DNA of 48,932 nt from a virus (taxonomy: Duplodnaviria; Heunggongvirae; Uroviricota; Caudoviricetes): the IMG/VR virus record IMGVR_UViG_640753024_000009; one strand, given 5' to 3'. A model generated the notes under the pieces. The model saw nothing but the letters and a program-made list of their open reading frames with translations. It did no database searches and was not told the origin of the DNA. Both the position numbers and the translations under genes were made by a program. Each line of letters starts with the position of its first letter. Position 1 is the first letter of the stretch. Shown here piece after piece: positions 1 to 37,636 of this stretch.

Positions 1-1011
1 TCAATCATCATCAATGATCACGGGTATATAATATTTTTTATTTCCGTATGCAAAATAAAGTTTTTCGTCTCCGCTGATGAAGTAAAACGCGGTCTTAGGT
101 TCTGCTCCTGTGGGTAGTTTACTCACTACAGCTGCTGCGGGCGGGAGATGCCCATCATGAAATATTGATCGGGCAATCCTATCAGCCCCAACGTATTGCA
201 GACCATTTGCAGCACCGTAGGGAAAGTCAATTTTTAGGCTAGAGGCGTTGTGATCGTAAATCTGCAAATAAGAATTTTCCTTGCGTTCTATATATGCGTC
301 AGGAAATATTCCTCCGGGACTCCAAAATGCTAATTGACCGTTTTTTTTGACCCCGTCAACTGTAGTGGAATAAATTCGGACAGAACGACCGAAGTATAAA
401 TCAAAGTCAGTATAGCATGATGCTGTATTTGTGTTGCCTGCTGAATTTTTCCCTATCTGGATATTGTTATTAAATGTCGCCGGTGAGTCAAACGTGGCAC
501 CCAACAAAAATGTCGCCAATTTTTTGAATTTGTTTTTTTCCAGAAATTCATTTTCCTTATCGAGTTTTGCGAATTTTGACGAGTCAAGACTGGCGGCTGC
601 CGCTGCTGCTGCTGCTGCGCTGTTCGCGCTGTTAGTTTCAGATGTGTGCGCCGCACTGGCGCTGGCGTCTGCTGCTGCTGCAGCATTTTTCGCAGCCGAT
701 ACTAGCTCTTGAATCTCCGCCAACGCAGCTGGCGTCAGTTCGTCTGCGCTAAAATTAGTCAAATAGTCGTTTAACGTGCCGTCAACACTGTCCGGGTTAA
801 CGTTAATCACGCCGAGATATGCCGCACTAGCAGTGACAACGTAAACTCCGGGATTCATATCAAATTTGTACTCACCCGCCGCGCCTGTTTCTTGCTCTAC
901 AACAGTGGTCATTACTACGCGTGAACTCGTGACCCGTGCTGTTAATACTAACTGAACGCCGACAACGGGCTCGCCGACCCCATTTGCGTATACACCCGAT
1001 ATTATTGCCAT
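1..1011 (-). CDS. Distal tail fibre protein, N-terminal 336 aa only (C-terminus beyond window edge)
   Basis: N-terminus MAIISGVYANGVGEPV resembles the lambda Stf-type prophage tail fibre N-terminal domain; Ala-rich linker; GGAG 10 nt upstream of ATG at 1011; directly follows the D gene. Confidence 0.7.
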   Translation of the reverse strand: MAIISGVYANGVGEPVVGVQLVLTARVTSSRVVMTTVVEQETGAAGEYKFDMNPGVYVVTASAAYLGVINVNPDSVDGTLNDYLTNFSADELTPAALAEIQELVSAAKNAAAAADASASAAHTSETNSANSAAAAAAAAASLDSSKFAKLDKENEFLEKNKFKKLATFLLGATFDSPATFNNNIQIGKNSAGNTNTASCYTDFDLYFGRSVRIYSTTVDGVKKNGQLAFWSPGGIFPDAYIERKENSYLQIYDHNASSLKIDFPYGAANGLQYVGADRIARSIFHDGHLPPAAAVVSKLPTGAEPKTAFYFISGDEKLYFAYGNKKYYIPVIIDDD

Positions 1012-1016
1012 TTCAT

Positions 1017-2060
1017 TTACTCCAGCGACAGTCGCGCAGAGAATCCGTTTTCAGCCAGCGTCAGCGTCAACGTATTGATTGTCCAGTCTCGGTCCTCCTC
1101 TGTCCCGAACCCTTGTGTTGTGACTTTGCATTCTGCAGTCAGCGATACTAAATCGAGCGTTGCTGGCGTTGTGTACGTCATGGAAAACTCTTTTTTAGCC
1201 GCACCTCCTTTTAGCCCCGGCGCGGCCTCTTTCGCTGCGTCGAGCGACGGCTCAACTGCCGGCCATTCAATGACAGGATCACCACCACTGCCTGTGCGCA
1301 GCTCCTTGATCTGCCCTGTTGCCGTATCGTGGTATTTGATCAGATATGTCGGCTCCGAATTTTCGCCACCTCCGCCACTATCGCCGTTTTGTCCATTTCT
1401 CGAATAACCCCAGCTGGAGTTATCACGACGCGTGAGCGTGTAGTGCAGAAGCGGTGCTCCGTTAACAGATTCGCCCGCGCCACGCGGCAGGAATATCCAG
1501 TACCCTCCTGCGGGTTTGCTCACCGCATCGAATCGTGTTGCTAGTCTCGACATCAGGTGCATATCTGACTCACCGACTTGATCGAGCTGCGTGATAATGT
1601 TGTCTGCAAACCGCTTTGATACGCGAGGTTTTAGCCCGTTATCGCTCGCTATTGTCGCAACGATATCGCTGACGGTGACGTCGCTCCATGAGCGCGTCTT
1701 TTTGCTCTGAACTGTTGGAGAGCCCTTTGCCGCGTTCATCGGAGCCGCTTTTGCTGTGAAATCAACTACCCGGGGTTCACCGCCACTGCTAGCACCGTCA
1801 ACGATGTATATGCCTTTATCAATTATCTGATTACCGAAACCGAGCCCAATGCTAATTTTCACTCCACGGGCCGGAATTTTCAGAGTTTCAGAAACTATTG
1901 CTACGCGGAGTTCGTCTGTCTGTTTACTGGAACCGCCGTAATCTGTCAGCGTGATATTGATCAAACCTTTTCTTATTTTATCCGTGATGTTTTTATTATC
2001 AGCAGATATATAAAAATTAGGTTTCCACGCCTCCACGCCAGTATTTACGTAATCACTCAT
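1017..2060 (-). CDS. P2 gpD-like tail protein (late control D family)
   Basis: 347-aa product; position after U and X in a P2-like tail operon; Gly-rich central region typical of gpD-like proteins. Confidence 0.75.
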   Translation of the reverse strand: MSDYVNTGVEAWKPNFYISADNKNITDKIRKGLINITLTDYGGSSKQTDELRVAIVSETLKIPARGVKISIGLGFGNQIIDKGIYIVDGASSGGEPRVVDFTAKAAPMNAAKGSPTVQSKKTRSWSDVTVSDIVATIASDNGLKPRVSKRFADNIITQLDQVGESDMHLMSRLATRFDAVSKPAGGYWIFLPRGAGESVNGAPLLHYTLTRRDNSSWGYSRNGQNGDSGGGGENSEPTYLIKYHDTATGQIKELRTGSGGDPVIEWPAVEPSLDAAKEAAPGLKGGAAKKEFSMTYTTPATLDLVSLTAECKVTTQGFGTEEDRDWTINTLTLTLAENGFSARLSLE

Positions 2061-2063
2061 TCA

Positions 2064-2276
2064 TCAATCCCATAATTGCGTTTCTTTTTTAACCGGTTCT
2101 GGTTCGATATCGGGTAAAACAATTTTTTCTCCAGCACGAAACACGGCACACATATCAGTTACGCCGTAATTCGAAACCTGATATAAAACAGTCTCTGTCG
2201 TTTTTGACGCTCTCCCGTAGACCGCAAAGCAGATTTGATCGAGACGGTCACCGTCCCGCGTCGTATATGTAATCAT
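2064..2276 (-). CDS. P2 gpX-like tail protein
   Basis: 70-aa product of typical gpX size, located between U and D. Confidence 0.65.
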   Translation of the reverse strand: MITYTTRDGDRLDQICFAVYGRASKTTETVLYQVSNYGVTDMCAVFRAGEKIVLPDIEPEPVKKETQLWD

Positions 2277-2535
2277 GATTATGAGGCCTCAAATGGAATT
2301 ATTTGCGTGGGTTATCGCTCTGTATATATGGTTAATGGCGAACCCGTTAATATCCATCATTTTATACGTAATACCGTTAGTAATTGCTCTAATAAGGGGA
2401 CATAAAAGCTGCGCAATGGTCGTTATTCTGAATATATTATTCGGATGGATATTTTTGATGTGGATCATTCTGTTGCTGTGGTCCGCTCTCGGTGATAAAA
2501 AACCGAAAGAAGTTCAATCCAGCGAAGCTCCGTAA
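2275..2535 (+). CDS. Small two-helix membrane protein, superinfection-immunity-like; antisense insert in the tail operon
   Basis: 86-aa product with two long hydrophobic segments (WVIALYIWLMANPLISIILYVIPLVIALI and VVILNILFGWIFLMWIILLLW); opposite strand to all flanking tail genes; no clear SD. Confidence 0.45.
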   Translation: MIMRPQMELFAWVIALYIWLMANPLISIILYVIPLVIALIRGHKSCAMVVILNILFGWIFLMWIILLLWSALGDKKPKEVQSSEAP

Positions 2536-2942
2536 TATTCGAGCGTGAGTGAAAAGTCCTGCGATTTTGGGGTCCCTCCTTTCAGAAAACTGTTTTGCGT
2601 TTCTGTTAACTCCCTGATAACCCAGTACCCCTTCACCTCCCCGGTCCCCAGCACCAGTTGCTGGGGTTCTCCCGAGTTCCCCAGCGCCCGCAAATCTGTT
2701 AACAAGCCAATGCCGCACCCATCAAGGAATAAGGCATTTATTTTCCCATCGATCGTGATTGTGGGGTTCGGTCGTCCGGTTATCTGCAATGCGTCGTTTT
2801 TTCCGAACCGTGTTTGCTGAGCCCAGCGCCAGGCGTCACTACGTTGCAGTTTGTTGTACGCTACTGTTGATATAGCAAAAATGAAATCACCCACGCCTAG
2901 CATGATATCCTCAGCACCGTTTATCGCATCACTCATTGTCAC
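2514..2942 (-). CDS. P2 gpU-like tail protein
   Basis: 142-aa product immediately downstream of the tape measure gene, as in P2. Confidence 0.7.
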   Translation of the reverse strand: MTMSDAINGAEDIMLGVGDFIFAISTVAYNKLQRSDAWRWAQQTRFGKNDALQITGRPNPTITIDGKINALFLDGCGIGLLTDLRALGNSGEPQQLVLGTGEVKGYWVIRELTETQNSFLKGGTPKSQDFSLTLEYYGASLD

Positions 2943-4579
2943 CCCGCCGCCGCTGGTTTATCAAACATCGCACCACGGTTGTACGAACTCGCAACTTGTC
3001 TCAGCCCGTCGAGCACACCCGATGCAGCAGCCTGCTGTGTTGATTGTGGATCTGCCGCTCCGATAATATTGATTTCAATTTTATTGTTTTGCTCTGGCGC
3101 TGGAGTTGCGACTGCTTGTCTCAGCGCGTCAATATTCAACGTTGCTGAGTTTTGTGATTCAGGCGTTGAGCCTTTATTTATTAATCCAGTAAACGGGTTA
3201 GCAAACGAGAGCAGTGATTCAGCCTGTGATTTTGCACGAGCAAGACGTTCAGGGTGTCGCATATTATCCACGGCTTCGGCGGCTTTTGCTTTTGCAACAT
3301 TATCCGCCGCCATTCCTGGGTTTGGTGAATATTTTCCTCCGCCATCCATGAATTCCTGATACGCCTTATTATATTCTTCGTTATATACGCGCTGCTCCTC
3401 GTCTGTTTTCTCGTCCGGTATTAACCACTCCAGTTTTTTTACGACTGCCCAAATTATTTTTCCGAATTTAACGCACGCCTCGCCAAAACTGACTATCCCC
3501 TCCCACATTTTTTTCATATTTTCTGGCTTAACCCATTCTTTAATACTATCAACAACCCCCCCTTGATTCTCTTTAAACCAGGATGCCAGCCCGTCTCGCA
3601 TAGCGTCAAACGTCGGCGCGAGTTCCCCTCCGATTTTCCCGAGAGTATCTGCCAGCCCCGATGTGATTGCCCCCCACAGATTCGTGACGGATACGTGCGC
3701 GCGCGCTGCACCCTCAGCCCCTTCTTTCGTTAGCAGGTTTGATTTTTGAGCGTCCGACAGAGTCTGCTCCCAGCTTTTACCAGTCGCCCGCATATAAGTC
3801 ATTATTTTATTAGCTTCCCCCCCCATGAGCTGATCAGCCAGACTCGCCGCCTGTTGATCATCCTTCATTTCAGAGATACGCCGCATAACTTCATTGAACT
3901 GTTTTTCTCGATCCCATTTAGCCATCCGTTTTTTTGTCAGGCCAATTTGAAACAACATGGGGTTCAGGTTTTTTTCGTTTCCAACCTCCCCGATTTTATT
4001 AGTCAACTCCTCCGACAGATCTCCTACGTTTTCGCCATTCAGCCCTGCAGCTTTACCAATATTTTCCCACGCAGCGTATTTTTCGATGCCAACACCGTAG
4101 GACTTCGCCAGACCGAGTTTTTCTGACGTCTCTGCATTCATTGCCAACGCGCCAGCAGCCGCGCCGCCGAGCAGACCCACGGCCCCCAGCGTCCCCCATT
4201 TGATACCCCGTCCCGTGGCCCTCACCGCACCTGCGGCGGCTCGCCCTCCCCATTTTGCAGCACCTTTTGCGCGCCCCGTCCACTTCTCCAGCCGCTGTTT
4301 TTTGGCGAGCTGAGTATTCAGAGCTTCCTGGTCCTGTGTTGTCGCTTTTATCCGACGGTCCAGCTTTTGATACTGAGCAGATAAATCAGAAACGTCTTTA
4401 CCCGCCAGTTTCATTGCTGCGATTTTGTCTTTTAATTTATCCTGGCTTTTCGTTAATTTTCCGACAGTAGACGACGTCTGCCGAATTGCATCGTTGAGTT
4501 CTGTTGTACCGCGCCGAAACGACGGGTCTATTCTTCCCCCAAATACAACCTGCGTTTTAAAGTTTTGAGAAATAGCCAT
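2939..4579 (-). CDS. Tail tape measure protein
   Basis: 546-aa product, Ala/Gly/Lys-rich with coiled-coil-like segments; located between tail chaperone and U; GAGG upstream of ATG. Confidence 0.75.
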   Translation of the reverse strand: MAISQNFKTQVVFGGRIDPSFRRGTTELNDAIRQTSSTVGKLTKSQDKLKDKIAAMKLAGKDVSDLSAQYQKLDRRIKATTQDQEALNTQLAKKQRLEKWTGRAKGAAKWGGRAAAGAVRATGRGIKWGTLGAVGLLGGAAAGALAMNAETSEKLGLAKSYGVGIEKYAAWENIGKAAGLNGENVGDLSEELTNKIGEVGNEKNLNPMLFQIGLTKKRMAKWDREKQFNEVMRRISEMKDDQQAASLADQLMGGEANKIMTYMRATGKSWEQTLSDAQKSNLLTKEGAEGAARAHVSVTNLWGAITSGLADTLGKIGGELAPTFDAMRDGLASWFKENQGGVVDSIKEWVKPENMKKMWEGIVSFGEACVKFGKIIWAVVKKLEWLIPDEKTDEEQRVYNEEYNKAYQEFMDGGGKYSPNPGMAADNVAKAKAAEAVDNMRHPERLARAKSQAESLLSFANPFTGLINKGSTPESQNSATLNIDALRQAVATPAPEQNNKIEINIIGAADPQSTQQAAASGVLDGLRQVASSYNRGAMFDKPAAAG

Positions 4580-14441: not shown

Positions 14442-15751
14442 TATTCATCCCCTAAAATTGAACGCCCTGCCGCGACCAGCATCGAGACGTTTGCGGTTGT
14501 TCCTGTTGCCGTGGTGCTGCCGGCATCCTGAATAGTTTCCGGTGATTCAGTGCTCATGAGTGTATCGAGCGCCGTTTCTGTCCGCGCCTGCGCTGTTTGC
14601 GGTGCTGCCGCGAGGACAGCCTGCGCCTGCCCGACCGTCATCCCGGGGACGGCAGCGAGCGCTTTTGCCTGCGCCTCGCGCCCAACAGCTTCGGGACAGT
14701 TGATGATGGCCATCACGCGTGCCAGTTCGCTCGATGCGGCGTCCGCGCGAATCTGCTCCGCGTTGGACTCAACCGGCGCGACCGTAGTCGTAGCCGCGGT
14801 TTGTTCTGTGGTCGTGGTCTCCGCCGTGGTTTCTGTTGTACCTGGCATAAATCGCTCCGTTTTTGGTTTCAGTGCGTCGGCCATCACTGCGATAGCGTCC
14901 GCGTAATTAACGAGTTGATCAGCGAGACCAGATTTAATCGCGTCCGCGCCGATAAATACTGCGGCCTCTGTGGCCAGCACCCTGGATTTTTTCAGCCCGG
15001 TATAATCCGAGACTTTTTGCGCGAACTGCTCGCGTGTGCTGTTAATACTCAGCTGGAATTCGTCGCGAACGTCGTCGGGCAGCTGGGAATACGGGTTCCC
15101 GTCGACTTTGTGCGCGCCGGCGTAAATCAGCGTCACGTCAACGCCGGCAATCTCCAGCGCCTTTTCGACGCAGCGGTGAGCCATCAGGACACCGATTGAA
15201 CCAACCGTGCCGGTCTGCGTTATCAGCCGGCGCGAACACGCTGACGCCAGCAAATATGCGGCGCTGCAGGCCGTATCGCTGGCCAGCGCCCACACCGGTT
15301 TTTGCTCTCGCGCCCGGGCGATTAAATCAGCGGTATCAAACGCGCCGGCGACCTCACCGCCAGGGGAATCAATATCCAGCAGGATCCCCTTAACATCGGG
15401 ATCAGAAATCGCCTGCTGCAGGCGTTTTGCGATTCCGTCGTAACCACTCATCCCGCTGACCGGATTGATATAACCCAATTTATGAACCAGCGTCCCGGTA
15501 ACCGGCAGAACGGCTATACCACGCTCCACGCGATACGATTTCTGGCGTGTTCGCTCGCTGCTGTCCCACCCCATCGCGAGCGCGTTCATTTCGTCGCTGT
15601 TCATTACCTCTCCTGACGCTGTATCAATCAGTCGCCCGGTACCGAACCGGTCGCTCAGCGCAGAAAAAAATACCCGCGCGTAGGCGGGCTCCAGCAAAAG
15701 CGGTTGATTGAACGCCCTAGCGGCGAGGTGCGGAAAATTGTTCCACGGCAT
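14441..15751 (-). CDS. Head maturation protease / scaffold (lambda gpC, S49 peptidase family)
   Basis: 436 aa (lambda C is about 439 aa); S49/ClpP-like region followed by Thr/Ala-rich scaffold-like tail; start overlaps portal stop. Confidence 0.85.
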   Translation of the reverse strand: MPWNNFPHLAARAFNQPLLLEPAYARVFFSALSDRFGTGRLIDTASGEVMNSDEMNALAMGWDSSERTRQKSYRVERGIAVLPVTGTLVHKLGYINPVSGMSGYDGIAKRLQQAISDPDVKGILLDIDSPGGEVAGAFDTADLIARAREQKPVWALASDTACSAAYLLASACSRRLITQTGTVGSIGVLMAHRCVEKALEIAGVDVTLIYAGAHKVDGNPYSQLPDDVRDEFQLSINSTREQFAQKVSDYTGLKKSRVLATEAAVFIGADAIKSGLADQLVNYADAIAVMADALKPKTERFMPGTTETTAETTTTEQTAATTTVAPVESNAEQIRADAASSELARVMAIINCPEAVGREAQAKALAAVPGMTVGQAQAVLAAAPQTAQARTETALDTLMSTESPETIQDAGSTTATGTTANVSMLVAAGRSILGDE

Positions 15752-16688
15752 CAGTTACCTCCCCAGCCGTTATCGTTGGTATTTGAGGGGTGAGATACTG
15801 ACCAGGATGGTTCGCTCAGCCCCATTTCGCGCCGGCGCTGAATTTCGTATTCCTGTTGTTCCATGACCTCCTCGTAGTCCTGCCCCTGCAGCGCGAGTTC
15901 GTTCTGATACGTGCTGAGGCCAGTCGTGATGCGCATGGCGCTCTCCTGAACCTCTTTCAGCCCATCAATCGCCATGCGACCAGCGCCGATCCAGAGCGCG
16001 TTCGTCCAGGAGTTCCGCGCTTCATAAAACGACCGGACCGCTGAGCGTGGCAGGGTGATAACTCCGCGCGCCAGAGCTTCCTCAAACCAGCAGCAGAACA
16101 TCAGTGACGCCTGTCGTGCGGCGATAAAACGTCGACGGCCCATGAAAAAACGCCAGCTCACGTTTGCGCTGGCCCGCGCGCTGGAGTAACTGACCTGGCT
16201 GTAGTCCCGACTCAGTTCCTCATATGACGCGCCGACGCCAGCGGCAACGTAACGCAGGAGTGATTTTTCCAGCGAACTGAAACCAGCATCAGCATTCTGA
16301 GCGGTCTGTAAACTGAGTTTGTCGCCGGGATGCAGGTGGGGAACTTTCACACCACCGAGCTTGATATTTGCGCCGTTGTAGTACGTCACGTAACTCTGAA
16401 TAAACGAACTCAGCGGGTTCGAGTCGATATCAGTACCCGCGCCGGCGATATATTCAAACGCCTGCTGGCTGTCGAGCTCTGATTCGATTGTGGCGGCGTA
16501 CATCGCCTTCACGATGGCGCTCTGCAGCTGTGTTTGCTGCAGCGTATCGAGCATTTTCAGCCGCTCCATTACGCTGTAAAAAATGTTATCTCCGCGGGTT
16601 TGTCCGTCCTCGAGCGGCTCGAATATGTGAATGAATGCGTGTCTGCCGCTGCTGAGTTTTGCTGGTATGCGCCGGCATTTACCAACTC
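15751..16688 (-). pseudogene. Portal protein (lambda gpB family), C-terminal fragment separated from its N-terminus by an IS element
   Basis: GRHAFIHIFEPLEDGQTRGDNIFYSVMERLKMLDTLQQTQLQSAIVKAMYAATIESELD is collinear with lambda B; reading frame continues upstream to the IS boundary at 16688. Confidence 0.85.
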
Positions 16689-16745
16689 TGTCAACGCCAA
16701 GATTATTGGCCGTTTTTCGCCATTTTTAATGTCCGCTATTGGTCA

Positions 16746-18712
<1,967 letters not shown>

Positions 18713-18813
18713 GAGTGTTCCCTTTGTGGTGTAGGAACCTTAAGGAAACAACATGTTGGGTGGAGCGGACAATCCAAATGGTGAATTACTGTCTTATATC
18801 ATTGGCGCTGACA

Positions 18814-19451
18814 ACTCCGCCGAGGGGATAGGTATCCTCGGCTATCCAGTACCCAACCGCGGCCCCGTTTTTATCGATATCAACACCGGCGCGGCGAAAT
18901 TGAGTGTCAGCTGCGTAGCCAGGATTTCGAATTCGTTTCGGTGAGACCATTTTGAATCGCGTCCGAAAAACGCTGCCGGCGCAGCTCTCCCACACCGGTT
19001 GTACGCAGGTTTCACCGTTGAACGCGTGAGTGGCCACGCCTTCGCGAATCATCATTGTGAACGTCCGTTTCCGCTCGATATCAATCGTGCAGTGAGGGTC
19101 CTCGGCGTATTCAGTCCACGCGACCTCAACGTCACGCGCCAGCGCCCTGGCGTCCTCGCGAGATATCCCGATGTAACGCCAGTTAGGGCGATAACTCAAC
19201 TTAAACAGATTGCCGACGATATGATCCTGATGCAGCTGCACGGCGTTCGACGCGACGCCGTTATTACGAACGAGATCGTCTGCTCGCGCGTTACCGCGAT
19301 AAAAATTAGGCAGCAGTGCCGCATCGGCGCTTTGCTGTGGTGCATTCCAGTCAATCAGCTGGCCACCGAAGCCGGGACCGCCGCCGTTATACCCCGCGTA
19401 ACGGCGTAGTGGCGTTTTACCGTCAGGCCCGAGCAACTGCTGAGCAGTCAT
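18814..19451 (-). pseudogene. Portal protein (lambda gpB family), N-terminal fragment truncated by the IS element
   Basis: LLGPDGKTPLRRYAGYNGGGPGFGGQL and LPNFYRGNARADDLVRNNG match the lambda B N-terminus; ORF runs into IS sequence and stops 9 codons later. Confidence 0.85.
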
Positions 19452-27066: not shown

Positions 27067-27217
27067 GTCTTCCCCCTAACGCCATTACCTGTACATTTAT
27101 ACAGTATTTTATGGCATTTGTCATAACGCCAGATACAATGAGGGAATAATGAACAATTATATTCACGTCGTGAATTTTATTAAACGGTTTTATAGGGGAT
27201 TAAACCGTTTATGGTCA

Positions 27218-27859
27218 TTATTTATCACTCCTGTAAATTGAAATTAACCATTTTCTAATCGTCGACGCTGCAGGTGGGTCAGAGTATTTCGCCACAAAAA
27301 TACCGGATATGTATTGCACACCACGCGATAATGGCGCTGTCGGGTTTTCAGTAAAAAAACGATCAGCCAGTTCAATGGCTTCGCTTTTTAATCTGTGCTG
27401 TGGTCGTCCTCCGCCCTTAGTGCCAAGGTAACGCGCCAGTTGTTTGAAACGGTAGGCGATGATTAACGGTCGCATCATCATATTGAAAAAATCGCGGGCA
27501 TCGTTGTCAGCGCCTTGCGCTATCAACAGTGCAAAAAACAGATACGGGATTGTGTACACTTCAGGAGATATACGAACCCGTTCACAAGTTGGTGGAGCCA
27601 ACTCAATAAGTAAGTCAGCCAGCGGATTCCCCTTTTCTCCACGTTTGTAATAGCGATACAGCGGCCCGATATCAAGTTCACTCGCGTCGATTTCAGGATG
27701 CCTGGTAACGGCTGTACGTATCTCTTCTGCCAGAGCGTCAAATATTGCCCCGGTCCGCTCAAGATAGAGCCTCCGGGTCGAGCCGCGATCATCCAGAGCT
27801 CGTAACATATCTAATCGGCTAACGAAAGTTTCAGGCCAGTCCTCATAGAGGGTTTTCAT
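27218..27859 (-). CDS. Hypothetical protein (213 aa), first backbone-strand gene after the accessory island
   Basis: GAGG 6 nt upstream of ATG at 27859; preceded by an intrinsic terminator; no recognised motif. Confidence 0.5.
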   Translation of the reverse strand: MKTLYEDWPETFVSRLDMLRALDDRGSTRRLYLERTGAIFDALAEEIRTAVTRHPEIDASELDIGPLYRYYKRGEKGNPLADLLIELAPPTCERVRISPEVYTIPYLFFALLIAQGADNDARDFFNMMMRPLIIAYRFKQLARYLGTKGGGRPQHRLKSEAIELADRFFTENPTAPLSRGVQYISGIFVAKYSDPPAASTIRKWLISIYRSDK

Positions 27860-27927
27860 AATTACCTCGAATAATAAAACTGCATTATTTGCACAATTTA
27901 TTATTCGTTTTCACATCGTGAAGTCTA

Positions 27928-27954
27928 TAAAAAAGAAGACCCGCCGAAGCGGGT
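27928..27954 (-). terminator. Intrinsic terminator (minus strand)
   Basis: ACCCGC-TTCG-GCGGGT hairpin followed by CTTCTTTTTT on the minus strand. Confidence 0.5.
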
Positions 27955-28368
27955 TAGTAAATCATTTGTGCCAAATTATAAGACCACACCGTAAGCTTTT
28001 ATATGCGTCCTATGGTTATAGCTCATATTATATGCTTCAAAAATATCTATTCTTTTGTTCTAACGTCAACACCTACCCTTAAAAGATTAATTCTCTAAGA
28101 ATGAGAGAATGTTGTGTGTATTAGATAAGATATGAGCTGACACATCTATGGCGTGAAGACAAATTTAATCTGACAGTCTACTTTGTTGCCAGAGCGGATA
28201 TCGCAAGCGTTAAGTCAGATATTTGAAAACGCATCGTTATCCTGGTTGGGATACTTGCACTACTTTTAGGCGTACTGCTATCTTGCACAGTTATTCAAAG
28301 GTAATTTTTTCTTTATTAGTAGCCTACTTCCAGGGGCTTGTACAACTGACAAAACGAGGGAGATCCCC

Positions 28369-29148
28369 ATGAGCAACAAAGATTTTTCACTTTTTTATTT
28401 TGCAACCATTGATCGGTCTTACTTCCTCGACAAACACAATTTTTATGTTGCTGAAGCCAGAAAGCGTCTATTTTCGCAGTTTAGCGATTCTGATCTTGAA
28501 GCTGAAGCCAGGCAGAGAGAACAAGATTACTATGAGGCCGCCGGTAAGCGTTTTGACCCCGATTATGACGACGAAGGGGCTATCTGTGAACAGGCTCATG
28601 ATGAAGGAATTTCACATTGGATTGCTCTCAGTGATATGAAAAATACGGTTTCACTTGCTCTGACAGCAGGAATGTTTCATCAGTTCGACAAGGAACTTAG
28701 AGAGAAGTGTATCAGAGAATTCAGCCATTGGCTCGACGCTAAATCCGTAACATCGATGATCTGGGACATTAGCTTCCCAAGGCTAATTGAAATTCTAGAA
28801 TGGATTGGGATGGATATCACCAGCAAGGCTTATTACGAAAAAATCGATGCCTGTCGCCAAGTGGTTAATGTTTATAAGCACGGTGATGGCCATGCCCATC
28901 GGGTGCTTTCCGTCGCGCATCCTGAGTATTATCAGGATATCAATATTCCAAGAGGCTACAGATTTAGTCTACGTCATGAGCAACTTGAGGTTACAGAAAC
29001 ACAGTTTATAGAGTTTGCAGATGCGATTACAGCTTTCTGGAATGATATCCCAACATACTGTATGCGCTCAGCTATTCGGGAAGAACCTGAATGGATAAAA
29101 GGCGAATATAAAAAACATGAGAAGAAAGTTAAAATGCTTCAGGACTAA
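28369..29148 (+). CDS. Hypothetical protein (259 aa), accessory island cargo
   Basis: SD GAGGGA 8 nt upstream of ATG at 28369; opposite strand to phage backbone; no recognised domain. Confidence 0.55.
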   Translation: MSNKDFSLFYFATIDRSYFLDKHNFYVAEARKRLFSQFSDSDLEAEARQREQDYYEAAGKRFDPDYDDEGAICEQAHDEGISHWIALSDMKNTVSLALTAGMFHQFDKELREKCIREFSHWLDAKSVTSMIWDISFPRLIEILEWIGMDITSKAYYEKIDACRQVVNVYKHGDGHAHRVLSVAHPEYYQDINIPRGYRFSLRHEQLEVTETQFIEFADAITAFWNDIPTYCMRSAIREEPEWIKGEYKKHEKKVKMLQD

Positions 29149-29233
29149 AATTCTTGATAATAGCAAGTGTATCCTACATGTAGACATTTGCCTGCCGTGT
29201 CTTTTAGCTACCCTAGCTGCGAGAACAATTACG

Positions 29234-29339
29234 AACTTCCGCTCCTCGCTCACAGCGAACTTTCAACTCAGTTAGCTTGCCCGCTTCGTACCAAAAGCGG
29301 GCATTGCTAACATCTATCTCCATCAATCTGTGGGAACAG
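29234..29339 (+). repeat. Structured island repeat, copy 1
   Basis: Shares CTCGCTCACAGCG box (29245-29257), hairpin GCCCGCTT...AAGCGGGC (29279-29302), GCTAACA and GTGGGAACAG boxes with copies 2 and 3. Confidence 0.7.
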
Positions 29340-29626
29340 CTCGCCGTAATAGCACATTGAATCCTATGTCTAAAAGCAGATGTTCTGGTTTGCCGGGAAA
29401 TTTACAAAATGACGGCGTCTCTTGTTAGAGGTTCTCCCTGCTTCACACTGCTGATTCTTCATGGATTTTAGTATAATTAGTGAAAAAAATTTTTTTGGTT
29501 GTTATCATATACATGAGGACTTCTTCAGAAGAACTGAGAAAAATTCGGGGTTCACTTAACACAATGACAATTAAGAAGATTAACTGTCTGGTAAGTGATT
29601 ATTTTATTCATTAAAAAACAAACATC

Positions 29627-30289
29627 ATGATAATTGACTTTATAAAAAGCAAGGAAGCCTTGCTAATATTGGCAATAACTGTTCTATCTTATATGTCTGC
29701 AATTTCATTTGAATATGGCTATGCATATCATTTTGATTATCCTATGGAGTTTATAACGTTAGATTCTAAATTTTTATTCGTGGGTATGTCATATTTATTT
29801 TTTAATATAATTTGTGTTATGTTGATGTTTTTTACTCCATGGCCTGAAAGTAAAGTAAAAGCAGTTAAAGTTACTGCAGTTACAGTTTTTATCATGATTG
29901 TTTTTATTGTTCAGTCTTATAGACATAAGACTGAATATGGTGGTTTTTTCGTTTTAAGTTTATCGATAGCAACAGTTACTTATATTATATACAAAATTGT
30001 TAAAAATCATAAACGTAATCCAAGTTATTTAATTTGGTCTGCAACCCTTCCCCTTATTGCCATAATGACATTTAGTTTCTTAATTGGTTTACAACAAGCG
30101 TCATTAAAAAAAGAATTTAGTTACTTTCATGATCAATCTAAAGACTACGTGATTATTAGGTTGTATGACGGTAACCTTGTCGCTAAAGAAGTAAATATAA
30201 AAGAGCGCAAGCTAGGGAGTGAGATATTATATATACCTAGCTATAACCCAGCCCCTATAACGTTAAATAAAATTAAAATAGAACAATAG
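29627..30289 (+). CDS. Multi-pass membrane protein (220 aa), very AT-rich
   Basis: At least four hydrophobic helices; low-GC coding sequence; flanked by repeat copies 1 and 2. Confidence 0.6.
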   Translation: MIIDFIKSKEALLILAITVLSYMSAISFEYGYAYHFDYPMEFITLDSKFLFVGMSYLFFNIICVMLMFFTPWPESKVKAVKVTAVTVFIMIVFIVQSYRHKTEYGGFFVLSLSIATVTYIIYKIVKNHKRNPSYLIWSATLPLIAIMTFSFLIGLQQASLKKEFSYFHDQSKDYVIIRLYDGNLVAKEVNIKERKLGSEILYIPSYNPAPITLNKIKIEQ

Positions 30290-30432
30290 ATTCATATAGT
30301 GGCCTTATGAAAAATAGGTCACTATCGTTGATATTTCATATGAATTTTTAACGACCTTGGTAGTAAAATTATCGTAAATCCCCTACATAACAAGACCATT
30401 TACTATAGATCTGTTTTACTCTCAATAAAATC

Positions 30433-30532
30433 AACTTCCGCTCCTCGCTCACAGCGGACCTTCAGTTTTTGTCCGCTTCGTGTCAGAAGCGGAAGTAGCT
30501 AACAACAGCCTATGTTGATTCAAGGGGAACAG
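30433..30532 (+). repeat. Structured island repeat, copy 2
   Basis: AACTTCCGCTCCTCGCTCACAGCG block identical to copy 1; hairpin TCCGCTTC...GAAGCGGA (30472-30493); GCTAACA; GGGGAACAG (30524-30532). Confidence 0.7.
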
Positions 30533-30611
30533 GTCACTGGGTTAATCTAATTATGTCCCTTTAGAACCATCTTTCTTAAGTGAATATATTTTCACTTTAT
30601 TTTCTACTGCC

Positions 30612-31991
30612 TCAGTCATAAGGTTTGTTTTTGGCTTTTGACATCATGAGAAGGAAATATGAAGGGTGGCTCTTTATTTCTGAAGAATGGCTTGTAATAT
30701 TAAAGACATCTTTTAGAATCGTAAAAGCTCCTGTAGCCAACGACACTGGATTTGGTGCACCAATAAAACCTATCAATGAAGGCACACTGTTAAGAAAAAG
30801 TTCTTTTTTACTCTTCCGCTTATAGGCTTGTATTTTTTGCTCAATATCTGTCAATCCTTCATCCCACACCCGCTCGACAAAATGTTGATTTATTAGTTGT
30901 CTCTTATATGGATCACTTTCTGCTTCTATATCATACGCAGCTTCACGTAGTACAGAGCGGAAAGAATTAAAACTCGGCTCGTAGTCAGTTCTAATTTTGT
31001 AGAGTTCACTTGGAGTCAGTCCCTCTAAGAATGGAACGTCTATAGAGAGTTTAACCCTCTGAACTTCATTCTTTTGATCAAGTTTACGAAGAATCTCTCC
31101 ATGAAACGGGCAATATGCCCCCAGGGATGCTCTACATGAATGCGCTTGGTTAAGGTCAGTAATAAGGTTTTTATAATGAAAGAGAACCGTACGGTTTTTT
31201 GCTCCCTGCACCCACCGTTCATAACTTTTTTTTCCGCTATGATTTCCCATGACAAGCTCCATAGATATGGAGCCATCATCATTATCAATGGCATTTTTTA
31301 TATGTTGATACATATATCCATTTGTATATAAACTTTCACAGTCTTTAATTTCCAACATAATTTCATTAGATAAAACATTTTTGTTTAATAACCGAATTTT
31401 ATTTGTATTACCTAGACGTTCTATATTCTTTACGGATAGTCTATTTTCATAAAGACGGGCAATGTTAGGAGGGAGATATCGATATATAAAATTAGCATCA
31501 GAGTTATCGTCTAAAATTCCATTGGCCCTCTCCGAATCTTTAATAGAAGATTCGCTGCGTACAAAAACGATAAACTCACCACGGATAAGATCAAAGTTTT
31601 CTTTAGCAAACCTGATAAATCTAGCAATTTCCTTCCTGAGATGTTCAACCTTCTCTTTTCTATCGCTTACAATAATTTTTTCAAATGCATTTTCTGTTAG
31701 ACTCACTCTGTATCGTAGGCTCAATGAATACAGAACATCATCAAGAATGACTCTGTCCATTGAAAACAGTCCACTCTTATACCTTTCAATATTACGATTT
31801 CCCGCCATGTAAACATTTAGCCGAGACTCCTGTACAGAATTTGCTTGCTCGATAATCAGTGAATCTATTCTTTTATTATATTCATCTAACTCAATTAGCA
31901 ATTCATTCAATCCAATATTTTCATATTCCTGATCTAAAAGTCGATCAACCCAGAAAAGGCTTTCTGTGAGGGCATAGAGGTTGTTGTACAT
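30612..31991 (-). CDS. Hypothetical protein (459 aa), AT-rich
   Basis: AGGA 7 nt upstream of ATG at 31991; convergent with the membrane protein gene; flanked by repeat copies 2 and 3; no recognised domain. Confidence 0.6.
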   Translation of the reverse strand: MYNNLYALTESLFWVDRLLDQEYENIGLNELLIELDEYNKRIDSLIIEQANSVQESRLNVYMAGNRNIERYKSGLFSMDRVILDDVLYSLSLRYRVSLTENAFEKIIVSDRKEKVEHLRKEIARFIRFAKENFDLIRGEFIVFVRSESSIKDSERANGILDDNSDANFIYRYLPPNIARLYENRLSVKNIERLGNTNKIRLLNKNVLSNEIMLEIKDCESLYTNGYMYQHIKNAIDNDDGSISMELVMGNHSGKKSYERWVQGAKNRTVLFHYKNLITDLNQAHSCRASLGAYCPFHGEILRKLDQKNEVQRVKLSIDVPFLEGLTPSELYKIRTDYEPSFNSFRSVLREAAYDIEAESDPYKRQLINQHFVERVWDEGLTDIEQKIQAYKRKSKKELFLNSVPSLIGFIGAPNPVSLATGAFTILKDVFNITSHSSEIKSHPSYFLLMMSKAKNKPYD

Positions 31992-32150
31992 ATCAGTTCC
32001 TTTTTACCAGGCTTCAGTCAGAGTACACTATCATTTTACATTTAAATGTACTTCCAAGCATCATGCTGTTAGTGCCGGATTATAACACTTGGCACCCGTA
32101 TGTTTGGATAACAAACTGCGTATAATCCTTGTGAGTTGTGATGTCTGTTT

Positions 32151-32250
32151 CTCGCTCACAGCGGGTCTTCAGTTGTTCGTCCACTCTGTGCCAGGAGCGG
32201 ACATTGATTATTCCTCACTGTAAAAATCTTAATGCTAACTAGTGGGAACT
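32151..32250 (+). repeat. Structured island repeat, copy 3
   Basis: CTCGCTCACAGCG (32151-32163); hairpin GTCCACTC...GAGCGGAC (32179-32202); GCTAACT and GTGGGAAC (32242-32249). Confidence 0.65.
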
Positions 32251-32271
32251 ATAAGTTGTCAATTGACATGA

Positions 32272-33123
<852 letters not shown>

Positions 33124-33203
33124 CCAATATATGGCAGTAATGAATATTTCGGGGATCGTGTTTGCTGCGGTCATGGTTACCATTATTAGTGTGCTGAACT
33201 GAA

Positions 33204-34439
33204 ATGACTAAGCGAAATAAAACCCCAAAATTTAACTTGGACAAAGCTCGCAAAAAAGAGATTCGCGCAGCCTTAACCAGCGTGGGTATGACCCCTCAAC
33301 ATGATGGCTGGGCGGATTTGTTTATGTACGCTTATACAGATGGCAGCAATTTAAACGGTTTGCAATTGGCCAAAGCCTTATCAGTGCATCCAACACTGAT
33401 AAATGGTTTATCGCGCGGCATCAAATTAAAACCAGAGAAAGCGCTCTCCAAAAAACGACCATCAAAACCTACGCTGGCCGATAAACGCCGCGAGGCCAAA
33501 CAGAAGGTCAATATGGGCTGGGAAGCGCTGATTCGCACTATGCCTATGCAAAAGCCAGGCGCACGCAAAAACCCTGAAACAGAAGCCCTTTGGGAGAATG
33601 CCCGTCGCCGTGGCACGTCCCAGGCCAGCACGCCAGCATTTACGCCGACAATCATCCCGCGCAAGGTTTCCGCTCAAATCAACACCGAATTACCAGGCCT
33701 GCAATCAACGCAGATGGAAACACCGAAACGGTATGATTCTGTGAGCATGACATCAAAAGTTACGACAAAGCTGGATAATCGCGTCCTACAGGATTTTCTG
33801 GCAAAACACATTCCAGCCAGCCAGCGTCGTGATGTTGAGCTTTATATCCACAAACACCAGCATGAAGCCACCACGACCATTGAACTGGTGCAGCGGTACC
33901 TGGATGATCAGGAAGAAAAGCAAATCATCCGAGAAGCCGAGAAGCTGGCCGACGTTGTTCCGGAACTGGTAGCCGATGATCGAATCATCATGTCGCAGGA
34001 AGTAGTGGTCGTCGTGGAGGAAGAGAAACCCGCGCCCGCGCTTGGCCAACCTGTCAAACTCCACAGTACCCGAACCGCGCAGCGCATCGTTGAGCAGCGC
34101 GACACGACGGCGCATATGCAGTTTGTTGAATGGGTATGGAATAATTTTGCTGGCCGTTGCGCGGTGACTGGCTGGCAGAACGGCGAACGATTGCAAGCGG
34201 CGCACATTGAGCCAGCTACCTCAGGCAATTTTAGCGCTGATAATGGCCTGTTGTTGACTCCAACGATACACGACTTACTAGACGCAGAGCTGATGGCCGT
34301 CAACCCTGAAACAATGACCGTACATTTTGCCCCAGGTATTGAGCTCGGCGCGATGTTTGAAGGCAAAGTGATTGAGCCTAAATTATGGCCGCTGAACATG
34401 GCCGCGTTGGTTAAACGCTGGAAAGAACGGAAATTCTGA
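33204..34439 (+). CDS. HNH nuclease domain protein (411 aa)
   Basis: C-terminal CAVTGWQNGERLQAAHIEPATSGNFSADNGLLLTPTIHDLLD fits an HNH motif; basic N-terminal 300 aa unassigned; 80 bp downstream of the GIY-YIG gene on the same strand. Confidence 0.6.
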   Translation: MTKRNKTPKFNLDKARKKEIRAALTSVGMTPQHDGWADLFMYAYTDGSNLNGLQLAKALSVHPTLINGLSRGIKLKPEKALSKKRPSKPTLADKRREAKQKVNMGWEALIRTMPMQKPGARKNPETEALWENARRRGTSQASTPAFTPTIIPRKVSAQINTELPGLQSTQMETPKRYDSVSMTSKVTTKLDNRVLQDFLAKHIPASQRRDVELYIHKHQHEATTTIELVQRYLDDQEEKQIIREAEKLADVVPELVADDRIIMSQEVVVVVEEEKPAPALGQPVKLHSTRTAQRIVEQRDTTAHMQFVEWVWNNFAGRCAVTGWQNGERLQAAHIEPATSGNFSADNGLLLTPTIHDLLDAELMAVNPETMTVHFAPGIELGAMFEGKVIEPKLWPLNMAALVKRWKERKF

Positions 34440-34570
34440 TTAAATATTTTAATCACCATCGTGCTGGCTGCCATCGCCTATATGGCGTTGCCTCATCACT
34501 CGAATCCGAATGCATAATCTTATCCGAGTGGGGAAAGTGCACCACCAAAACATCGAAACAGGAATAGAAA

Positions 34571-35131
34571 ATGAACGGAATATCAAAAATCATCTTAGCA
34601 CTGACCGCTGGATTTACGCTGTCCGGATGTGTAAGCCATACCCAAAAAAATTCACAACCAGATCCGGCTGCAATCGAGGCGGCAAAACTTGCGCAGTACA
34701 CCGATTCACAGCTTTGCCAGGCAGAAGATAATATAGAGCCATTGCTCAACCTTAATCCATCATCTCATCCTGAATTTAATGAAAATTATCGCCGCGCCCA
34801 GGCTATTAAAAAGGTGATCGCCTCTCGTAATTTAAGCTGCTACCGCCTGAAAATGGAGAGGGCAGAACAGGCCACACCAGCACGCCCGTTAAGCCCACGA
34901 CAAAAACAAGCGAGGGCATCCGCTGTTTGCCAGGCTTACGCCCAGCGTACCCGATTTGCGGATCCGACAGTCACATTTCAGATGTGCGGGAAAGGATTCC
35001 AGTCTACTTCGGCAAAATGTAAGGAAGATTTGGCGAGTTTTGAACGTGAGTCTCAGAAACTTAGAGGTACGGCCAGAGCGGAATATGTTGAAATTAGCAG
35101 TGCATTTCGGGCAGGCTGTACTTTAAAATAA
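34571..35131 (+). CDS. Lipoprotein (186 aa)
   Basis: Signal peptide with lipobox LTAGFTLSGC; AGGA upstream of ATG. Confidence 0.6.
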   Translation: MNGISKIILALTAGFTLSGCVSHTQKNSQPDPAAIEAAKLAQYTDSQLCQAEDNIEPLLNLNPSSHPEFNENYRRAQAIKKVIASRNLSCYRLKMERAEQATPARPLSPRQKQARASAVCQAYAQRTRFADPTVTFQMCGKGFQSTSAKCKEDLASFERESQKLRGTARAEYVEISSAFRAGCTLK

Positions 35132-35583
35132 AAAATGAAGTAATATTAATAACGCAATTGAATTTAAAAAAATCAATGCCTACTCGGTGCCATATACAGC
35201 CATTGTTATTAACAGCAGGGAATAATTCCACACTGAAATTAAATGTCTACCTTTTACAGTAGAAATAGTTCCTCCAGGACACTATCCATTGCCGGGCACA
35301 ATCACTCGGGGTATAACGATATAAAATATGTTCATGATAGTGCAGGTTCGTATATTAAGTTCAGCAGCGAAAACATGCCCTGCAGGTTTCCGGTTTTGGG
35401 AGCGTCGTTACAGGATCCTGTGCATACCGTTCCCATCTGTTGAATTAAAGGTTTCACAGCCTTTGCCGATATCACCTTTTACCTTGCCTGTGATGCGTTC
35501 AGTGCTCAGCGTTGTTTACTGTAGCTCTCGGAACTGATTACAGACCGCGTCTTAAAAACCAATCCTTACTCTAAAGGGAATTC

Positions 35584-36507
35584 ATGAGATTAAAATACTC
35601 AGTACTCTTACTCGCCATTGCCCTTACAGGCTGTGATAACAAAAAAGATGAGATCGGTTGTTCTTCGGAAATGACCCAATCAGCTCTCATGGATTTATTA
35701 AAAAAATCTGCTTATGAAGGACTCTCTGAACAGGTCGATAAATACCCTGATGTCACTAATCAGACCAAACGAAGCACACTGGACAAGATCAAACTAGCCG
35801 TCTCTGAAATCTCCACAACATCAAGTGACACGGGCAGCACAATGAAAACTTGTGAAGGGACCGTGACGATGACTCTACCTGCGAACGAGTACGTCCAGCT
35901 TTCTGATGCTTACAGAAAGAATTTTAATCGTAATCTCGATAAGCAAATGGAAAATCTGTTTTTGGAGAACAACGCAAACGCCTTTTCAAAACGTATCACC
36001 TACACCGTGCAGGCGACCGACGATCAGAAAAACGTTTTTGTAAAAACCTCTTCTGATAATCCGATATCAGTGGGCGCCGCTTTACTGACATCGCTTTCCA
36101 TTATCAACCCGATCGTTGAGCAGCAGAAAATCCAGCAGGCTAAGGATGCCCAACAGAGTCAAATTGAAGCGGAACAACAGGTGCAACTCAGGGCACAGGA
36201 ACAGGCCAGGTATGAGGCGGAGAAGCAAAAAGAGAGGCAGGCACAACTTCAGCCGCAAAAATCTGAAAGCCTTGATCAGTCCCGAATGGCATTTGCAAAT
36301 GCTGACTCTGATTTGAATACCGTCTGGAGCAAGTTAACCCCGGCGAAGAAAAAAGAGTTGCTGCCTTCTCAGCGCCAGTGGATCAAAACTAAGGATGCTA
36401 TGTGCGGTAAAGTTTCAATGCAGGGAACAGATGCTGAAGTCAAGAAAATGGTCGACTGCCAGACGCAAATGACCCTTTCAAGAATCGCTTTCCTCAGAAA
36501 CCAATAA
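35584..36507 (+). CDS. Lipoprotein with C-terminal LprI-like (DUF1311) domain
   Basis: Lipobox LLAIALTGC; Gln/Glu-rich coiled region; C-terminal LNTVWSKL...QRQWIKTKDAMCG...QTQMTLSRIAFL resembles DUF1311. Confidence 0.6.
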   Translation: MRLKYSVLLLAIALTGCDNKKDEIGCSSEMTQSALMDLLKKSAYEGLSEQVDKYPDVTNQTKRSTLDKIKLAVSEISTTSSDTGSTMKTCEGTVTMTLPANEYVQLSDAYRKNFNRNLDKQMENLFLENNANAFSKRITYTVQATDDQKNVFVKTSSDNPISVGAALLTSLSIINPIVEQQKIQQAKDAQQSQIEAEQQVQLRAQEQARYEAEKQKERQAQLQPQKSESLDQSRMAFANADSDLNTVWSKLTPAKKKELLPSQRQWIKTKDAMCGKVSMQGTDAEVKKMVDCQTQMTLSRIAFLRNQ

Positions 36508-36521
36508 CTGAAGTTTCCTTC

Positions 36522-36555
36522 AAGCTGGCGCCTGGTGTTAACCTGGTGCCAGCTT
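36522..36555. terminator. Long hairpin between convergent genes, possible terminator
   Basis: AAGCTGGCGCC...GGTGCCAGCTT stem of about 10 bp just after the stop at 36507; no clear U-tract. Confidence 0.3.
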
Positions 36556-36684
36556 AGTCATCAAGTACATACGTTACAGTTTTACATGGGCGGTACTTTG
36601 ACAGAGTATTCGGCCTCGTGCTGGTTGTGACTAAATACCTTTTTAAGCGCAAATAGAGTATAACCGCGCCAAACATTCAACCTG

Positions 36685-37479
36685 TCAAAATGCTGAATCA
36701 GCAACAGATACAGCCGACTTTTCCCCCATTAGCATCAATTTATCCAGCGTCATACTTCGCAGGTTGTCGCTGTGGATCACCAGATACCCTGCCCGCTCAG
36801 CGATCTCTTTGAAAGCGTCAAAAGTCATCAGATGTTCGCCTTTGGCAACATGGCGCATCCTGGTCACTTTTCCATTTTTGATAGTGGTGATAAAAGAAAA
36901 ATCTGGAATGGTTGGCTGCTTTTCATCGAGCAGCAGGCAGTGGATGTATTCAATCGCTTCTAACATTTGCGCCTGTGACAGTTGTTCTATGTGAGAGACG
37001 GCGAAGCGTTGATGAATCATGGTATAAGCATCGGGATACATCATGCCTTTCTTGCCGACCAGCATATTAACGGCATCACGTAAGGGGGTGCGGTCATCGG
37101 TGGTTGTACTCCGCCTCTCTGGACGCTGGCTAAAATAGCAATCTTCAAGCTTTTCGAAAACTTCCCAGGCCTGTTCTGTTTCCAGCATTTTGGCATGGCG
37201 AGCTGCGCCGCATTCTGTCCAGAGGATGAGAGAGCGGACATTTCTGGCGATTTTCACAGGAGGTCTTAAAGACATGCTGTGCTTAAATTCGCGCAACTCC
37301 TCACCTTCGAGCAAAAAGTAATGCTTCCCGACCACGAATCGCTCTGAGTTCCGGTTATGGTTTTTACGAATGTAATCCGGCTCTGTGCCATAGAGGTTCG
37401 CGAGTAATTCGGTGGTGAGGACGGGAAGTTGGTTGTGGATAATCGGGGAGATGGCTGCTGCGGATACTTGAGTTGTCAT
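36685..37479 (-). CDS. Antirepressor-like protein with N-terminal ORF6N/KilA-N-type DNA-binding domain
   Basis: LTTELLANLYGTEPDYIRKNHNRNSERFVVGKHYFLLEGEELREFK resembles the ORF6N domain of phage antirepressors; AGGA upstream of ATG at 37479. Confidence 0.55.
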   Translation of the reverse strand: MTTQVSAAAISPIIHNQLPVLTTELLANLYGTEPDYIRKNHNRNSERFVVGKHYFLLEGEELREFKHSMSLRPPVKIARNVRSLILWTECGAARHAKMLETEQAWEVFEKLEDCYFSQRPERRSTTTDDRTPLRDAVNMLVGKKGMMYPDAYTMIHQRFAVSHIEQLSQAQMLEAIEYIHCLLLDEKQPTIPDFSFITTIKNGKVTRMRHVAKGEHLMTFDAFKEIAERAGYLVIHSDNLRSMTLDKLMLMGEKSAVSVADSAF

Positions 37480-37636
37480 AGCGATTTCCTTTTAGTCGGA
37501 TAATCACCCCCCTCAGGTGCAAATCTTTGGGTGGTGAGACATGCAGGGTTTGCACTACCGGCTAAAAGGACCCGGCGAGCCTTTCGACTCCCCTACACGC
37601 CCCACCATAAATCGCGGATGTGGCTGTGCGCACGAC

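Follow-up and report, generated by a model that had tools for sequence, protein, structure and literature searches.

The locus studied here raises the question of whether a short open reading frame that points against a prophage tail operon is a genuine gene, what its product would do, and from which transcript it would be made. The window, that is, the whole stretch of 48,932 nucleotides that was analysed, is E. coli chromosome with a prophage, and over positions 1900-3000 it matches E. coli SE11 and ten further complete genomes at 100% identity. A preliminary description had placed a membrane-protein gene on the opposite strand between tail genes X and U. The genes surrounding this frame were as follows.

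Positions 1-1011, minus strand: tail fibre N-terminal domain protein.
Positions 1017-2060, minus strand: gpD-like late control or baseplate hub protein (weak PF05954 match; 'phage late control protein' in PGAP).
Positions 2064-2276, minus strand: tail protein X, LysM-like (PF05489, 56.4 bits), divergent from the antisense gene.
Positions 2514-2936, minus strand: tail protein gpU (PF06995, 112.8 bits; PGAP coordinates), convergent with the antisense gene.
Positions 2939-4579, minus strand: tape measure.

The genes for the assembly chaperone, tube and sheath were also found on the minus strand, upstream of the tape measure, U, X and D. The tail module is of the P2-type contractile kind and the prophage is lambdoid, the remainder of which encodes a Q antiterminator, two holins, a lambda-type head, and cro/cI-like and integrase genes. 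On the P2 map, X does not lie between U and D. The order of the tail genes and the lambdoid layout of the prophage indicate that X and D are the distal genes of one long late transcription unit, and late transcription must traverse the gap between U and X to reach the gpD-like gene.

An 86-codon open reading frame was present at 2275-2535 on the plus strand, filling the 237-bp gap between X and U. The following features were recognised within it.

Positions 2275-2292, plus strand: in-frame upstream extension MIMRPQ, missing from all homologs and probably untranslated.
Positions 2283-2290, both strands: perfect palindrome GAGGCCTC, which holds a GAGG for each of the two divergent genes.
Positions 2293-2535, plus strand: imm-like coding sequence of 80 aa, T4 Imm/PF14373 family (assigned by Pfam, PHROG 1039, homolog starts, and pN versus pS).
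Positions 2514-2535, both strands: convergent 22-nt overlap of the 3' ends of imm (..QSSEAP and stop) and U (..YYGASLD and stop), read from the sequence.

Initiation at the ATG at 2275 would give a product of 86 aa, as the preliminary description had it, and would share 2 nt with the start codon of X (complement of 2274-2276). All 16 full-length homologs open with MELFAW or MEIFAW, which corresponds to the window ATG at 2293, and the Salmonella allele (L004) contains no counterparts of the ATGs at 2275 and 2281; the start at 2275 was rejected on these two grounds. A GAGG is located at 2283-2286, 6 nt 5' of the ATG at 2293. Because of the homolog starts, this GAGG and the ATGs missing in Salmonella, the imm product is most likely a protein of 80 aa (2293-2535) whose gene is clear of X. 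The opposite-strand gene between X and U was thus confirmed in frame and position, while its length had to be reduced and the overlap with the X start codon proved to be an artefact of mechanical ORF calling. The spacing from the GAGG of GAGGCCTC to the start codon is 6 nt for imm on the plus strand and 10 nt for X on the minus strand. A GAGG or AAGGA was kept before imm in L004 and in a further locus, L007, and the palindrome itself was not conserved in the other lineages compared. The RefSeq protein WP_224695433.1 (SE11 and others) starts at 2335 and has 66 aa, and other records hold the 80-aa form; the PGAP start at 2335 was rejected in favour of 2293, as it would drop the conserved N-terminal helix. 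At the other end of the gene, the overlap with the stop codon of U that had been described was indeed present, with 22 nt shared at 2514-2535, and an overlap of 19-22 nt was kept in L004 and L007.

The imm protein matched PF14373 (Imm_superinfect) with 42.5 bits, above the gathering threshold of 27.9; the alignment took in positions 1-41 of the 42 in the profile and residues 30-70 of the 86-aa frame, and this was the sole Pfam match at E <= 0.01. T4 Imm, used as a control, matched the same family with 58.2 bits. PHROG 1039, 'immunity to superinfection', was matched at 3e-14, and BLASTP against T4 Imm returned 34% identity and 62% positives over 65 aa (pairwise E 5e-13). The imm protein had no match in NCBIfam and none among the PADLOC defence models at E <= 1, and no holin or toxin family of Pfam or NCBIfam was matched. 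A tblastn search with the 80-aa protein against 50,697 phage records gave nothing at E <= 0.01, which is likely to reflect low-complexity masking of this hydrophobic sequence and is not read as absence. Close relatives were found in E. coli, Salmonella enterica and E. whittamii by a search of 5.8 billion proteins, and a profile scan of genome contigs with the gpU alignment returned one locus, from E. whittamii, which was too few for a survey; the slot survey drew on viral and metagenome collections and on exact-protein look-ups. By all of the sequence criteria tested, the imm gene is a member of PF14373, and the earlier guess at a superinfection-immunity family was well founded, a putative function being assigned by homology. 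The identity of the protein is already known, as RefSeq labels the exact protein "superinfection immunity protein"; genome E62 annotates the product merely as a hypothetical protein.

Hydropathy analysis of the 80-aa form showed two long hydrophobic segments, the first at about residues 2-35 and the second at about 40-66, with a basic RGHKS loop between them, and a location in the inner membrane is predicted from this hydrophobicity. The same plan was found in T4 Imm, with an arm of about 32 residues, an RGxKS loop, an arm of about 27 residues and a short polar tail with KK. The two proteins resemble each other in length (T4 Imm has 83 aa), in their two hydrophobic arms, loop and basic C-terminal tail, and in the motifs Y..P..IA..R and GW....W.....W. 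The AlphaFold model, built with 36 homologs, had a mean pLDDT of 84.8 and contained helices at residues 2-16, 18-25, 27-35, 40-50 and 54-66, the arms being kinked at the conserved N17/P18, P28 and G51/W52. The family motif residues P28, G51, W52 and W57 were invariant. A two-helix membrane protein, as first described, is therefore right at coarse grain, and each of the two arms is broken by kinks in the model. The best fold matches of this model among viral models were all named superinfection immunity protein, and no solved structure was matched by sequence or fold.

T4 Imm is reported in reviews to prevent DNA injection and is an early product of the lytic cycle (PMC7677548), and the account in PMC11436027, citing Lu and Henning 1989, reports that it does so by altering the translocation site. 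It was the only PF14373 member with an experimental study in the literature searched, in which no experimental study of a prophage Imm homolog was found. Since PF14373 is very large (2925 cluster representatives at 50% identity, E <= 0.001) and T4 Imm is the sole studied member found, carrying its function over to the window protein at 34% identity is uncertain. The two genes also differ in setting. T4 is virulent and expresses imm as an early gene during infection, whereas the window imm belongs to a temperate prophage, lies antisense amid late tail genes and is presumably expressed in the lysogen. A parallel in genome position is gp15 of HK97, a moron of the tail operon that encodes an inner-membrane exclusion protein expressed from the prophage (PMC3594210). 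This protein blocks genome entry and leaves the receptor untouched, and its specificity is set by the incoming tail (PMC3594210). Both gp15 and imm are genes for small inner-membrane proteins, predicted to be such in the case of imm, placed between tail genes of a lambdoid prophage, but gp15 belongs to the YebO family, of which no match was found for the window protein (Pfam, E <= 0.01). By analogy, we infer that imm would work like gp15 from outside the YebO family. SieA of P22 is likewise described, in PMC10883804, as an inner-membrane protein expressed from the prophage that blocks entry of superinfecting DNA; it is considered an unrelated, larger protein at another genome position.

The explanation that we favour, and consider probable, is that imm is a moron of the U-X gap whose product, a T4 Imm-family protein of 80 aa in the inner membrane, would be made in the lysogen and would exclude the DNA of superinfecting phages. 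Translation would begin at the ATG at 2293, and the product would be inserted into the inner membrane as a kinked helical hairpin with the short basic RGHKS loop. As with T4 Imm, superinfecting DNA would then be barred from crossing the inner membrane, and the lysogen would be protected while keeping its surface receptor.

It is possible, though unlikely, that imm is a real membrane protein of this family with a role other than the exclusion of phage DNA. The protein could serve in membrane stress or host fitness, modulate lysis timing in the manner of a holin or antiholin, or act as a small toxic membrane peptide. According to PMC6832632, T4 Imm is holin-like and influences lysis inhibition; thousands of PF14373 members have no tested function, and imm fits none of the PADLOC defence-system models. 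However, the one characterised family member works in superinfection exclusion, and the holins of the prophage are encoded in a lysis cassette of their own. The protein matched no holin or toxin family of Pfam or NCBIfam, and, being antisense, imm is not expressed together with the late genes for lysis and morphogenesis.

The surroundings of imm were examined in related tail modules, and the gap between U and X was found to be occupied by different genes in different prophages.

Positions 2277-2513, both strands: variable cargo slot from the X start codon to the U stop codon, recognised by flank identity around unrelated contents.

The U and X flanks were about 93-96% identical to those of loci L002 and L003, the slot contents of which were unrelated to imm. 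The GC content was 0.38 in the slot, 0.51 in U and D, 0.44 in X and 0.435 in the tube gene, the low value of the slot being due in part to its many Ile, Leu and Phe codons. The imm cassette was present at >= 99% identity in 17 of 5426 complete E. coli genomes, while 435 of the same 5426, including JJ1886, carried an unrelated insert of 173 bp between flanks about 93-96% identical. This insert (L002 3378-3550), left unannotated by PGAP, is the commonest occupant of the slot in E. coli and encodes an antisense peptide of 44 aa (MRINFSSRRG...) with one transmembrane helix. The peptide shares 60% identity with the N-terminal end of a membrane-anchored protein of 176 aa in L024, and the 44-aa frame, which may be a truncated remnant of that protein, is frameshifted in L021, L035, L038 and L040. 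In L024 (3423-4685), a more distant relative, the slot contained antisense genes for the 176-aa protein and for one of 220 aa, each with an N-terminal hydrophobic segment. In L023 (3391-4012) it contained antisense frames of 105 and 66 aa, the latter with a signal-peptide-like start. The cargoes of L002, L023 and L024 gave no significant Pfam or PHROG match, and the sub-threshold matches were limited to TcaA for the 44-aa frame and WCOB for the 220-aa frame. In L042, L029 and L030 the slot was empty, and U abutted or overlapped X. Because U and X are adjacent in these three loci, against 237 bp here, imm is by position a moron in the Hendrix/Juhala sense.

Alleles of imm itself were found antisense in the same U-X slot at 81% amino acid identity in E. 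coli, 71% in Salmonella, 73-75% in P0011 (a Logan contig) and 58% in a metagenome contig, and the prophages that bear these alleles occupy different chromosomal sites. A homolog of 47% identity adjoins X divergently. Conservation at this position in related tail modules, which the preliminary description had proposed as a check, was therefore found, and it extended to diverged modules. More distant Imm homologs of 108-112 aa, with 38-43% identity and a charged C-terminal extension, were located in L029 (5001-5327) and L030 (5001-5339), directly after gpD of a like tail module and antisense, that is, convergent with D. To judge from these loci, the Imm family is persistently tied to the U-X-D end of this tail type. 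Cargo regions of P2-family phages are known as Z/fun, orf30 and the TO region with old and tin, and like the U-X gap they have fixed positions within or beside P2-type morphogenesis genes and contain varying, horizontally acquired genes; several genes of the P2-family regions exclude other phages (PMC3091744). The U-X gap lies outside these three classical regions and shows the same behaviour (PMC3091744). It is a cargo-exchange site that has not been described elsewhere as far as we have seen.

The distance from the X start codon to the imm ATG is 16 nt, and the other cargoes of the slot likewise begin straight after X. Because the cassette leaves no room, a promoter must sit in the antisense of X or further upstream. 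This sets imm apart from the HK97 moron, which is described with its own promoter and terminator, whereas imm lies on the opposite strand with no space for a promoter in its cassette. A consensus scan of the plus strand at 1900-3000 detected no sigma-70 promoter and no terminator; there was no intrinsic terminator 3' of imm, folding at 2500-2660 being no better than that of shuffled sequences (z = +1.09), and no Rfam family was matched within 1500-3300. A position-weight scan returned equally mediocre sites at 1974, 1994 and 2182, the last of which corresponds to the following feature.

Positions 2179-2187, plus strand: candidate extended -10 TGATATAAA, antisense of X codons 32-35 and 95 nt inside X.

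The -35 of this candidate is weak (GTTACG, 2158-2163), and transcription is predicted to start near 2194. In all eight loci, the site at 2182 was one of the six best-scoring promoter-like sites, which held for no other site, and it ranked first in three lineages, reading TATAAA in L004 and TATAGT in L023 and L024; the window copy reached only the 99.6th percentile and is without the T at the last -10 position. The extended -10 was kept in 10 of 10 cargo-bearing loci of this tail lineage, while in the two readable loci with an empty slot, L042 and L029, a Gln-to-Leu change in X removes the TG. Among the 36 degenerate, amino-acid-invariant codons of X, three were codon-invariant in all eight sequences, and two of these, Tyr33 TAT and Val35 GTT, lie within the candidate -10. 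As the motif overlaps the codons for the conserved VLYQV peptide, its conservation cannot count as independent evidence; the sample is also small and phylogenetically structured, and the site was picked out by conservation. The case for a promoter embedded in X at 2179-2187 is suggestive and falls short of proof. In the favoured explanation, imm would be transcribed alone in the lysogen, probably from this extended -10. Because the gene points against the Q-antiterminated late operon, imm would not be made from the late transcript, and on induction Q-modified polymerase would express X and D by running through the slot against imm.

A broader interpretation, which we regard as rather doubtful, is that the U-X gap is a dedicated antisense expression site, in which an X-embedded TGnTATAAA would serve any envelope-targeted cargo, and that Imm would block phages with tails of its own type. 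The cargo would be Imm, the 176-aa protein or its 44-aa remnant, or other membrane or secreted frames. The linkage of Imm to the tail module spans identities from 81% to about 38% and two positions. If it were true, the matched pairs of Imm and tail would offer a way to study how Imm proteins work.

An action of imm in lytic growth and not in the lysogen, by which the induced or newly infected cell would be guarded from released progeny, is improbable. T4 Imm does act as an early lytic product (PMC7677548), and no strong constitutive promoter was found for the window gene. Against this, imm opposes the only late transcript and lies a long way from the early region at about 42-43 kb, no lytic promoter is placed to drive it, and late transcription would collide with its own.

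The length of the frame is no better than chance, as many antisense frames of >= 90 aa occur in the window. The reality of the gene rests on homology and selection. Between lineages, pN of imm was 0.10-0.23 and pS was 0.77-0.92, with synonymous sites saturated, and X, U and D gave similar values. Amino acid identity between lineages was 71-81% for imm, 84-86% for X, 65-85% for U and 74-87% for D. Because pN is far below pS and the identity of imm tracks that of X, U and D, the comparison indicates that purifying selection acts on imm, that the gene has diverged in step with the tail module and that it is not a recent insertion. The gene occupies an intergenic gap, which together with pN being far below pS removes the concern, raised in the preliminary description, of an antisense artefact of the tail genes. 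On this sequence evidence, imm is a real gene, a member of PF14373 and a long-term resident of the slot.

The selection on the protein also bears on a reading in which the transcript and not the protein matters, an antisense RNA over the 5' end of X and the 3' end of U damping any leaky or late production of X and D. If transcription began at about 2194, the RNA would be complementary to the ribosome-binding site of X and to its codons 1-27 and would run into U without a terminator, and the differing cargoes all share one orientation. This reading is nevertheless very improbable, as purifying selection on the protein is strong, with P28, G51, W52 and W57 invariant, and the tail genes are no different in relatives whose slot is empty. 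A chance antisense frame, produced artefactually by AT-rich intergenic DNA or by the tail genes, has in its favour the abundance of long antisense frames in the window and the AT-richness of the region, but it is refuted by the Pfam match above the gathering threshold, the homolog starts, pN versus pS, and an allele kept at 58% amino acid identity in the same slot with synonymous change saturated, and the frame sits in a gap and not within a tail gene.

As a discovery, imm carries little weight, for it is an ordinary accessory gene of a named family and already annotated. Small exclusion genes within tail operons have been known since HK97 gp15. The practical value of the analysis lies in fixing the start codon, which gives 80 aa as against 86 in the mechanical frame or 66 in some PGAP records. 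Beyond this, imm could be shown to be an old, selected resident of the tail module and the U-X gap to be a site of cargo exchange. As far as we have seen, three modest points are undescribed, namely that cargo is swapped in this slot, that X may contain a promoter and that Imm has long been linked to this tail module. Which phages such prophages may exclude is relevant to host range in phage therapy.

Two further observations were made on the prophage. The lambda-family portal gene of the window was split into a C-terminal part at 15751-16569 and an N-terminal part at 18786-19451 by an IS21-family element of about 2.13 kb (about 16570-18785), which encodes IstB at 16746-17543 and IstA at 17540-18712. 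Both portal parts, IstB and IstA were all on the minus strand, and the portal gene of SE11 was unbroken, with 1572 nt. The window prophage is probably unable to make virions, though its imm slot is intact. The Q/lysis region is separated from the replication genes by a block of genes on mixed strands, at about 27200-37500. The SE11 copy of this block encodes a LEM-3-like GIY-YIG protein, a protein with an HNH endonuclease motif, an LprI-family lysozyme inhibitor, an ORF6N-domain protein and several hypothetical proteins, and the block may represent further accessory or defence cargo.
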